From a virus (Duplodnaviria; Heunggongvirae; Uroviricota; Caudoviricetes), in the IMG/VR virus record IMGVR_UViG_2526164646_000014: DNA of 15,256 bases. One strand, given 5' to 3'. This document shows, one piece after another, positions 10,855 to 12,274 of this stretch (the first letter of the stretch is position 1; each line of letters opens with the position of its first letter). Made by a program: the position numbers and the translations under genes. The notes under the pieces are model-generated. The model made no database searches. It was not told the DNA's origin and saw only the letters and a program-made list of their open reading frames with translations.

Positions 10855-10883
10855 TTGCAGATGTGATGACATATGGTTATTAT
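10855..10883 (+). promoter_or_regulatory. Candidate sigma70 promoter for the tRNA cluster (TTGCAG-17 bp-TATTAT)
   Basis: -35 at 10855..10860 and -10 at 10878..10883, placing the start about 3 nt before the first tRNA 5' end. Confidence 0.45.
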
Positions 10884-10892
10884 TCTGCCTCC

Positions 10893-10969
10893 GGCCCTTT
10901 AGCTCAGTTGGTCAGAGCGAGCGACTCATAATCGCCAGGTCGCTGGTTCAAGTCCAGCAAGGGCCACCA
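10893..10969 (+). tRNA. tRNA-Ile2 (anticodon CAU, lysidine type; formally could be Met)
   Basis: Hand-folded cloverleaf: acceptor GGCCCTT/AAGGGCC, anticodon loop CTCATAA (CAT at 10927..10929), T-loop TTCAAGT, encoded CCA; close to recalled E. coli ileX. Confidence 0.8.
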
Positions 10970-10970
10970 A

Positions 10971-11047
10971 CCACCACTAGCTCATCCGGATAGAGCATCA
11001 ACCTTCTAAGTTGACGGTGCGAGGTTCGAGTCCTCGGTGGTGGGCCA
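10971..11047 (+). tRNA. tRNA-Arg (anticodon UCU)
   Basis: Acceptor CCACCAC/GTGGTGG (unusual C1:G72), anticodon loop CTTCTAA (TCT at 11005..11007), T-arm CGAGG-TTCGAGT-CCTCG, encoded CCA. Confidence 0.75.
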
Positions 11048-11049
11048 GC

Positions 11050-11125
11050 GCCGACTTAGCTCAGCAGGCAGAGCAACTGACTTGTAATCAGTAGGTCACC
11101 AGTTCGATTCCGGTAGTCGGCACCA
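11050..11125 (+). tRNA. tRNA-Thr (anticodon UGU)
   Basis: Acceptor GCCGACT/AGTCGGC, anticodon loop CTTGTAA (TGT at 11083..11085), encoded CCA; T-stem has one A.C mismatch; resembles recalled E. coli thrT. Confidence 0.7.
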
Positions 11126-11128
11126 TAT

Positions 11129-11203
11129 GCGGGCATCGTATAATGGCTATTACCTCAGCCTTCCAAGCTGATGATGCGGGTTCGATTCCCGCTGCCCGCT
11201 CCA
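11129..11203 (+). tRNA. tRNA-Gly (anticodon UCC)
   Basis: Acceptor GCGGGCA/TGCCCGC, anticodon loop CTTCCAA (TCC at 11162..11164), T-arm GCGGG-TTCGATT-CCCGC, encoded CCA; matches recalled E. coli glyT. Confidence 0.85.
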
Positions 11204-12274
11204 TGACCTTTCTTAAAGTACTCCAACCTACTGAATCCTAAGGGATACGGCTTTAAGCCTCCTTGCAGAGTTACTTACTGTAACCCACTGTGTAACCCTC
11301 TCAGGGCATACAGACATATGATTCAGCTATCCAGTAGTCACAAACTTCCAGCAGTCTACTATCTCTACCAGCGTAACGGCGTCTACTACTTCCGTCTTAG
11401 GGTCAGACAATCAAACAATGATAGAATGACCTCAATATCATTACGGACCAAGGATAGACGCACCGCTATGGCTTACTCAAGGCACATAAAGGCAGCACTC
11501 AAGGCAATACACGCAGACAGACCCAACGCTACCTACGAGGAAATGAGGGAACACCTTAAGGACATCGCTGAGTGTGAACTGTCTATGGGCCGTTCAGATC
11601 TCTTTGAGCCTGACATGAGGGATATCTACCGGGACCAATACGGAGAACTTGGTGAGAGCCTTACCGATGCTCTGGCTAGTGAGCCGCTAAGCATTGACCA
11701 GCATCGTTACATCAATGAGGCCCTGAAGGTGCTAAAAGCCTGTATGAGGCGTATCGAAGCGGGAGACAGTCAGCCTCTGATAGATTACGTCGATCTTTTT
11801 AATGATATTGATAGGCAAGATAACCAAGCAGACTCTGTGTCCCTATCTGTTAATGCTCCAGAAGTAAAACCAGAAGTTACGCCTAGCATTACCATAGCGA
11901 GCCTCTTTGAGCAATACGAAGCGGAGAACTATCAGAACTGGAAGCCTGCAACCTTAAGGGAAAACAAGGCGTCACACGCTGCGTTAATCGAAATATTCGA
12001 CCATCTGGGTCTCAATGCAGACGCTAACAGGGCTGACATGCTTAGGGTCCGTGATGTGCTCCAGCAGTTACCTAGGAACCGTAAGCAGCGCTTCAAGGAT
12101 GTCCCACTTGCTGACCTGTTGAGCCGTGAAGATAAGACAGATTGTCTGGATGTCGTTACCATCAACAACAAGTATCTTATTAAGATGGCTGCTGTCTTTA
12201 GGTGGGCTGTGCGCAATGACTTGATTAAAAAGAACATGACTGAGGGTCTGGAGCTTAAAGTCCCTCTGAAGTGG

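Follow-up and report, generated by a model that had tools for sequence, protein, structure and literature searches.

We analysed a 15,256-nucleotide stretch of DNA from a Caudoviricetes virus (IMG/VR record IMGVR_UViG_2526164646_000014; "the window" denotes this whole stretch), in which a cluster of four tRNA genes is followed on the same strand by a gene for a tyrosine integrase. Very probably, an integrative island of the type that resides at the chromosomal tRNA gene glyU used a prophage-borne copy of another tRNA gene, glyT, as a secondary attachment site, and the locus then decayed through the activity of insertion sequences (ISs). Two unrelated mobile elements abut at positions 11203/11204. 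The tRNA genes are the late-region module of a decayed Shigella flexneri lambdoid prophage, which in intact relatives lies between Q-like/ORF6N genes and the holin/lysis genes, and the normal attachment site of the island is the last ~17 bp of chromosomal tRNA-Gly(CCC), glyU. The features at the boundary are:

11129-11203, + strand: tRNA-Gly(UCC), putative integration target and attB side of attL (ARAGORN, Rfam; 75/75 identical to K-12 glyT)
11187-11203, + strand: attL core, TCCCGCTGCCCGCTCCA (glyU/attP version TCCCTTCGCCCGCTCCA, 3 positions differing)
11204-15256, + strand: left part of a glyU-type integrative island, running to the window end (edge identity to glyU islands)
11318-12266, + strand: island tyrosine integrase, N-terminal part (the intact gene encodes 534 aa in S. 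flexneri NCTC1 and others)

Every match to prophage sequence stopped exactly at the CCA end of the tRNA-Gly, at 11203. From 11204 onwards the window corresponded to the left edge of islands that lie directly after chromosomal glyU (tRNA-Gly CCC, beside actS) in E. coli. The island edge, TGACCTTTCTTAAAG..., is the same in the window and in islands at glyU, and the first bases past the CCA (TGACCTTTCTTAAAGTACTCC...) are identical. The last 17 bp of the prophage tRNA-Gly(UCC) and of glyU show 3 mismatches followed by an identical final 10 bp (GCCCGCTCCA), and the two genes have 13-bp and 10-bp identical blocks in common. As only 3 of the 17 end positions differ from glyU, the island integrase very probably took the prophage tRNA-Gly as a secondary attB, and the island would have entered between the prophage tRNAs and the lysis genes, oriented with late transcription. 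The window attL retains the phage-type GCT, and its tRNA-Gly is thus intact. The original prediction had recognised in the co-directional order of tRNA and integrase the typical arrangement of islands that integrate at tRNA 3' ends; this was correct, although the target tRNA is phage-borne. The exact junction pattern had no match in genome-contig or metagenome-contig collections, and exact-sequence look-ups of both integrase halves returned nothing on record.

Integrases related to this one (65-87% identity) were identified in 20 Enterobacterales species. In 15 of these a tRNA-Gly(CCC) gene lies ~120-270 bp upstream of the integrase, and in none is the upstream tRNA Gly(UCC). At glyU in E. coli, the islands lie between direct repeats, 18-23 bp long, of the 3' end of glyU, and the smallest block common to attL and attR is TCCCTTC(G/A)CCCGCTCCA. 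Where both ends are visible and no IS is inserted, islands are 5.5-6.5 kb in size; one E. coli copy (L003) is 4.2 kb. Tandem island arrays also occur at glyU. In S. flexneri SFBU1023 (L032, 9805-9880), the chromosomal glyU is occupied by another family member, whose integrase is 73% identical, in an assembly with indel errors in the tRNA; two members of the family can therefore coexist in S. flexneri. A near-identical locus, recorded as an E. coli chromosome (L031), has the flanking repeat on both sides.

Islands at tRNA 3' ends are a well-described class (Williams 2002 classes; Islander/TIGER; the E. coli glyU hotspot), and the family resembles them in the position of the integrase beside the tRNA, in an attP that carries the tRNA 3' end, and in its 17-23 bp repeats. 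The insertion in the window differs from the usual glyU islands in its phage-borne target, in the isoacceptor used (UCC instead of CCC) and in the 3 core mismatches. The outcome also differs, as the phage-borne target is left either as an intact tRNA (the window) or as a hybrid tRNA in three sibling insertions (L042, L045 and L046).

The sibling insertions include examples with both ends preserved. In E. coli EPSSH018 (L042), a lambdoid prophage carries tRNA-Ile, -Lys, -Thr and -Gly(UCC) genes, followed by a 6356-bp island and then by the holin gene. Its attL consists of a glyT-type 5' part joined to a glyU-type end, TCCC-TTC-GCCCGCTCCA, and the island, and its attR of the island end, TCCC-GCT-GCCCGCTCCA and the flank gttagagtctttcag... 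(gttagagtctttcagtctgcg...). An empty site is available for comparison: the sequence that follows the unoccupied prophage tRNA-Gly of E. coli FDAARGOS_944, gtcagagtctttcag..., is the flank of the L042 attR bar one base (gtcagagtc...). With this empty site known, the two L042 junctions are the reciprocal products expected of site-specific integration.

A degenerate version of the junction pattern, searched in IMG/VR, found five prophage contigs. Three of the five belong to the lineage of the window, and the others are L045 and L046. L045 has the four-tRNA cluster of the window with a different island subtype, a TTC-type attL and a GCT-type attR, after which the FDAARGOS_944 empty-site sequence follows exactly. 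L046 has a further island subtype and a TTC-type attL. As the island subtypes differ among the window, L042, L045 and L046, at least four independent insertions must have taken place. Phage-borne copies of host tRNA genes can thus serve as landing pads for islands that normally reside at another chromosomal tRNA.

In the TTC-type insertions (L042 10250-10324; L045 12007-12081; L046 12044-12118), the tRNA-Gly(UCC) becomes a hybrid with a glyU-type 3' strand. Such a hybrid should have mismatches in the T stem and the acceptor stem, and ARAGORN still calls it as tRNA-Gly. The nesting of one mobile element in the late operon of another bears on prophage viability, on tRNA integrity (the hybrid tRNA-Gly) and on the automated calling of island and prophage boundaries.

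The right side of the island in the window lineage was assessed through related loci. With the ORF6N fragment of the window (described below) as query, ten NCBI loci were recovered, six of them chromosomes of 4.5-4.65 Mb. The tRNA-Gly/island junction was present in nine of these ten S. flexneri-type loci (L005-L012 and L014); the tenth, L013, ends before the site. One of the junction loci is LM651928, from S. flexneri NCTC1 (PMC4226921), and another, AGRC01000028.1 (L011), is 100% identical to the window. L011 continues for ~20 bp past the window end before a called gene with an IS1 transposase domain starts, and in NCTC1 the island is interrupted inside rha, at the same point, by an IS1. Beyond this IS1, NCTC1 has further IS copies, then only prophage tail-fibre genes, and then a chromosomal ABC-transporter gene. 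The right end of the island, attR, and the lysis and head genes of the prophage are gone in the window lineage. A direct repeat of the tRNA-Gly 3' end further to the right, which the original prediction had proposed to look for, was not found: there is no second core copy in the window or within 10 kb downstream in the related S. flexneri loci, because the right end was lost to IS1.

Damage by ISs is also evident within the integrase, where the earlier reading of the sequence had missed an inserted element:

12267-13513, - strand: IS911-like element of the IS3 family inside the integrase (Pfam rve, HTH_Tnp_1; ~99% identical to annotated IS911-family copies)
13514-14172, + strand: island integrase, C-terminal catalytic part (Pfam Phage_integrase, E 8e-19, match 13441-14172; collinear with the intact gene)

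The IS911-like element is flanked by a target duplication, CTC, at 12264-12266 and 13514-13516. The integrase is split in the window and in L011, and is intact (534 aa) in seven loci including NCTC1. Later IS insertions and deletions would thus have split the integrase, truncated the island inside rha and removed the late genes of the prophage. The IS911-like element is placed differently by strain, inside the integrase in the window and in the repeat region in NCTC1. In all, four IS copies lie in the 15 kb: IS3-family at 1-1153 (the left edge), IS1 at 6301-7068, a 1264-bp IS3-family element at 8911-10174, and the IS911-like element. Such IS density is typical of Shigella.

Several points weigh against the proposed insertion. 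Neither the window nor any of the related S. flexneri loci has an attR site, with the island truncated by IS1 and the late region deleted. As attR is gone there, we infer insertion in the S. flexneri lineage, and with it a common mode of origin for the S. flexneri copy, from the siblings. Insertion into a prophage tRNA-Gly is a rare event, since the L042-subtype junction was present in 1 of 5426 complete E. coli genomes, and that subtype otherwise resides at glyU. The promoter and terminator that can be assigned to the tRNA cluster are consensus-level matches. Finally, the window attL carries GCT, whereas that of the complete siblings carries TTC. The GCT could reflect a crossover inside the last 10 bp, or mismatches in the overlap region with segregation of the other heteroduplex strand, and the two are formally equivalent. 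Attempts to locate the crossover by comparing attL with attR in different species gave no information, the host single-nucleotide polymorphism being present on both sides.

The loss of attR leaves room for a different history, in which an island resident at glyU recombined with the prophage tRNA-Gly, either by microhomology or by integrase action between attL and a secondary site, so that the locus arose by a large rearrangement and no free island was inserted. Shigella genomes are heavily rearranged by ISs, and the 13-bp and 10-bp blocks shared by both tRNAs could have sustained such an exchange. However, the complete siblings are simple insertions with both junctions and an intact flanking prophage, and the visible IS1 truncation accounts for the missing attR. 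One S. flexneri glyU also bears its own, different island (that of SFBU1023), and the near-identical L031 is repeat-flanked on both sides. We therefore regard the rearrangement as unlikely and favour insertion of the island at the prophage tRNA-Gly.

The identity of the DNA to the left of the junction was established by comparison with intact prophages. Window positions 10700-11203 are 98.6-99.6% identical to prophages of E. coli VL40 and FDAARGOS_944. Both have a lambdoid order of replication genes, hok, DUF1367, DUF1364, a DUF1133 Q-like gene, ORF6N and tRNA-Ile/-Arg/-Thr/-Gly, then holin/lysozyme/spanin, terminase and head genes, and the window keeps this order as far as tRNA-Gly. The window itself has the DUF1133 and ORF6N genes on the upstream side of the tRNAs; the downstream lysis genes are seen in VL40 and FDAARGOS_944, and in the window they have been displaced by the island and deleted.

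8033-8587, + strand: Q-like antiterminator gene, DUF1133 (Pfam DUF1133, E 5e-108, with a weak Phage_antitermQ match; syntenic in VL40 and FDAARGOS_944)
10202-10684, + strand: ORF6N-domain gene fragment, 5'-truncated by the IS3-family element at 8911-10174 (Pfam ORF6N; IS borders from alignment to IS-free prophages)

This context bears on whether the integrase might be the prophage's own, with the lambdoid prophage ending at a chromosomal tRNA cluster into which it had integrated. A tRNA followed by int is indeed the usual layout of a prophage end. The tRNAs, however, are internal to the prophage, with the Q-like gene on one side and the lysis genes on the other, and related prophages carry the module at three different chromosomal positions in E. 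coli. There is no such cluster in K-12, where the cognate genes ileX, argU, thrU and glyT sit at four different loci. In the S. flexneri loci, tail-fibre genes of the prophage are found on the far side of the island, and the integrase moves as part of a 6-kb island that has repeats of its own at its ends. We give this explanation almost no credence. Given the prophage synteny and the dispersed K-12 cognates, the four-tRNA cluster is of a known type, namely a tRNA cassette of modular make-up from the late region of lambdoid prophages, and the integrase belongs to the island inserted behind it.

The tRNA genes themselves are genuine. ARAGORN placed four genes on the + strand at 10893-11203, and all scored 56-70 bits on the Rfam tRNA model (gathering score 29), confirming the predicted set of Ile-CAU, Arg-UCU, Thr-UGU and Gly-UCC. 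Spacers between neighbouring genes are 1-3 nt. In addition to tRNA-Gly(UCC), the cluster and its flanking signals comprise:

~10781-10804, + strand: terminator-like hairpin AACCCGC/GCGGGTT with a T-run, upstream of the cluster (sequence; -18.3 kcal/mol fold)
10854-10883, + strand: sigma-70-like promoter match, TTTGCA-18-TATTAT, whose end lies 10 nt ahead of the first tRNA (9/12 positions)
10893-10969, + strand: tRNA with anticodon CAU, probably of Ile2 (ileX-like) type (ARAGORN, Rfam)
10971-11047, + strand: tRNA-Arg(UCU), phage type (ARAGORN, Rfam; divergent, 58/77 identical to K-12 argU)
11050-11125, + strand: tRNA-Thr(UGU), near-copy of host thrU (ARAGORN, Rfam; 74/76 identical to K-12 thrU)

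The first tRNA (anticodon CAT in the DNA) is labelled Met by ARAGORN. As it is identical to E. coli ileX at 69 of 77 positions, the anticodon arm included, and its homologues in related prophages are annotated as tRNA-Ile, the call as Ile2 (lysidine type) is reasonable and likely. The cluster had been credited with its own promoter and a preceding terminator. Sequences of both kinds exist at the positions listed, but they are candidates at the level of consensus, and a terminator pattern scan of 10500-11400 made no call even though the hairpin and T-run are present.

Cluster variants in other prophages include Ile-Arg-Thr-Val, Ile-Lys-Thr-Gly and Arg-Thr-Gly-Ile. Compared with the Ile-Arg-Arg trio that lies downstream of Q in Stx/lambdoid prophages (933W-type), the window cluster is alike in its late-region position after a Q-like gene and in its first two tRNAs, and differs in adding near-exact copies of thrU and glyT and in the lack here of lysis genes following it. 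The Ile and Arg tRNA genes are ~88-90% identical to those of Stx2 phages, and the set is distinct from the Stx trio, as had been suggested, through the extra Thr and Gly genes.

The original prediction had tied this cluster to the integrase through codon usage, proposing that tRNAs for AUA, AGA/AGG, ACA and GGA are carried so that the rare-codon integrase and the genes downstream are translated efficiently. The integrase ORF (open reading frame) does start only 115 bp past tRNA-Gly, and the intact 534-aa gene is rich in AGG, AGA and ATA, with 24, 13 and 15 per 1000 codons compared to 0, 1.9 and 6.3 in chromosomal genes nearby; a moderate abundance of these codons extends to other genes of the island. 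The fit to the tRNA set is nevertheless poor, as the integrase uses two of the four cognate codons, ACA (3.7 per 1000) and GGA (5.6 per 1000), less often than chromosomal genes do. A tRNA with a UCU anticodon (argU, argW) reads AGG, the most frequent of the rare codons here, only weakly. The integrase family keeps the same bias at glyU, its usual site, with no tRNA cluster nearby, and the cluster is unchanged in prophages without the island. The sharp break in homology at 11203 points to separate evolutionary histories for the tRNAs and the integrase. The cluster proved to be a conserved prophage module ahead of the lysis genes, and so a locus unrelated to the integrase, an outcome that the original prediction had itself named as counting against its proposal.

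Codon supply to the integrase is therefore highly unlikely. Given the similarity of the attachment sites, the adjacency of the tRNAs and integrase would be a by-product of integration, and a tempting functional reading, in which phage tRNAs feed a rare-codon integrase, is thereby corrected. Within the prophage, early genes exceed chromosomal genes in ATA, AGA and AGG and about equal them in ACA and GGA, and late genes are enriched only in AGA, in a small sample of genes.

Downstream of the integrase, the island in the window contains a bacteriophage T7 promoter and the start of its cargo:

14260-14282, + strand: perfect 23-bp T7 class III promoter, TAATACGACTCACTATAGGGAGA, pointing toward the rha-like gene (sequence identity)
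14477-14895, + strand: AT-rich region with four short repeat arrays, TTAACTTAAAG x6, CTATAGGTCTCT x6, CTCTATGGCC x4 and CCTAGAGAGAC x4
15056-15256, + strand: 5' part of an island Rha-family regulator gene (Pfam Phage_pRha; full-length, 234-244 aa, in L002 and L039)

The 23-bp sequence is identical to six T7 promoters (phi6.5, 9, 10, 13, 17 and OR). Initiation by T7 RNA polymerase would be expected at window 14277, the G of ...TATAGGGAGA. Among natural isolates of E. coli and Shigella, glyU islands conserve this promoter. Its ~120-bp tandem repeats number one in the window, three in S. flexneri NCTC1 and two in E. coli 21AR0133. Contamination by a cloning vector was considered as its source and ruled out by its presence in natural isolates at glyU, the 1-3 tandem copies and the non-vector context. 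Across the 20 species, most islands have 23-mers of the form ...CACTATAGGGAG downstream of int. The glyU island of Klebsiella pneumoniae ATCC 13883 (L019, 12260-12400) has a stretch that is 100% identical over 24-26 bp to the phi9/phi10/phi13 promoters of Klebsiella phage K11, in addition to a T7-type promoter. These K11-type promoters in a Klebsiella island suggest that island promoters track the T7-like phages of the host genus. With a T7 promoter directed into its cargo genes, the island may be built to respond to T7-like phages.

Window positions 14673-15256 are only 95% identical to NCTC1 and differ in length, and a CAACAACCA (Gln-Gln-Pro) repeat lies at 15062-15103, at the 5' end of the rha-like gene. 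In intact islands, int is followed in turn by an optional DUF4145 gene, the promoters with the repeats, a Rha/KilA-N-type protein, a 62-76-aa ORF, DUF6971 and a protein of 329-402 aa. The last gene of intact islands (L002 13796-14917; L039 5072-6193; L019 14629-15837; L042 15259-16248) encodes this 329-402-aa protein and is preceded by DUF6971. The fold predicted for the 329-402-aa protein is HK97 capsid/encapsulin-like. Its sequence found no counterpart in Pfam, PHROG, PADLOC or PDB, its profile did not resemble that of T7 gp10, and only the fold search was informative. Neither DUF6971 nor the capsid-like gene is left in the window copy.

The anti-T7 gene PD-T7-4 is present in many sibling islands, where it overlaps the 3' end of int (L039 2170-2811; L019 11624-12256; L042 12059-12712). 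Their DUF4145 gene is a full-length PD-T7-4 match (PADLOC, E 7.5e-97), encoding a zinc-finger and DUF4145 (HEPN) protein right after int. The window island, in contrast, does not have it: int ends at 14172 and the promoter starts at 14260, 87 bp from the stop codon. PD-T7-4 is now named RAZR and is an abortive-infection RNase activated by the T7 portal (PMC13017515). The original screen had remarked on frequent overlap between PD-T7-4 homologues and an integrase gene (Vassallo et al. preprint, 10.1101/2022.05.12.491691). Term searches found no mention of a T7 promoter in the preprint, and no passage on a capsid-like gene or on glyU/att structure in either paper. The present comparison exposes the natural carrier of RAZR, a compact island of the glyU type in which perfect T7-family promoters are combined with a gene of capsid fold.

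The promoters, the predicted fold and the linkage to RAZR point to a possible T7 satellite or defence island. In layout, the tandem promoters and AT-rich region resemble the T7 primary origin (phi1.1A/B with its AT-rich region), by analogy only. When the non-coding region of the island was compared with phages by BLAST, only the promoters and one 50-bp AT-rich stretch of T7-like phages matched. As the matches were limited to these, mimicry of the T7 origin or genome ends would be a likeness of layout, distinct from demonstrated homology.

Similarities to known satellites were also considered. The HE-PICIs (a group of phage-inducible chromosomal islands, PICIs; Mageeney et al. 2023, PMC10111431) are alike in being small integrase-bearing islands inside a lambdoid late region, co-oriented with late transcription. 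They target late protein-coding genes by means of a dedicated integrase clade (PMC10111431), whereas the window-type island targets a tRNA between the Q region and the holin gene and homes primarily to chromosomal glyU. HE-PICIs also have PICI gene content and lambdoid signals, whereas the window-type island has T7-type signals. No PICI genes (alpA, primase/replication or packaging-redirection) were found in the islands, in which Pfam and PHROGs identified only int, DUF4145/RAZR, the Rha/KilA-N-type gene, DUF6971 and an unassigned 373-aa protein. Compared with capsid-forming PICIs, P4, PLE and PICMI, the island family is of ~6 kb with no terminase, portal or primase recognised, and has promoters for the RNA polymerase of virulent T7-like phages.

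We tentatively suggest, while thinking it somewhat more apt to prove wrong than right, that the integrase marks a family of ~6-kb elements, so far undescribed and spread across the Enterobacterales, which are associated with virulent T7-like (Autographiviridae) phages either as satellites or as satellite-like defence islands. Such elements would home to glyU and be switched on by the RNA polymerase of the infecting phage, through promoters fitted to the T7-like phages of the host genus (T7 type in Escherichia/Shigella, K11 type in Klebsiella). They would possibly replicate from a T7-origin-like unit made up of the tandem promoters and the AT-rich region, have their own HK97-fold shell and often carry the portal-sensing RNase RAZR, and occasional insertion at the glyT-like tRNA of a lambdoid prophage, in the direction of late transcription, would offer a second route of expression and spread. 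If this is true, they would be the first satellites described for that virulent group, as far as the literature searched extends; our searches, of partial coverage, returned no description of T7-promoter islands, T7 satellites, DUF6971 or glyU islands in Shigella.

Two RNA-based features were observed in the prophage upstream of the tRNA cluster. A sok antitoxin RNA (Rfam, 118 bits) lies at 5487-5661 beside an ORF of the hok/gef family, forming the hok/sok toxin-antitoxin module of the prophage. Just past the Q-like gene, Rfam identified a C4 antisense RNA, its a1/b1 targets and the isrK Hfq-binding RNA at 8607-8808, which marks this segment as a putative control region of the immI/antirepressor type.

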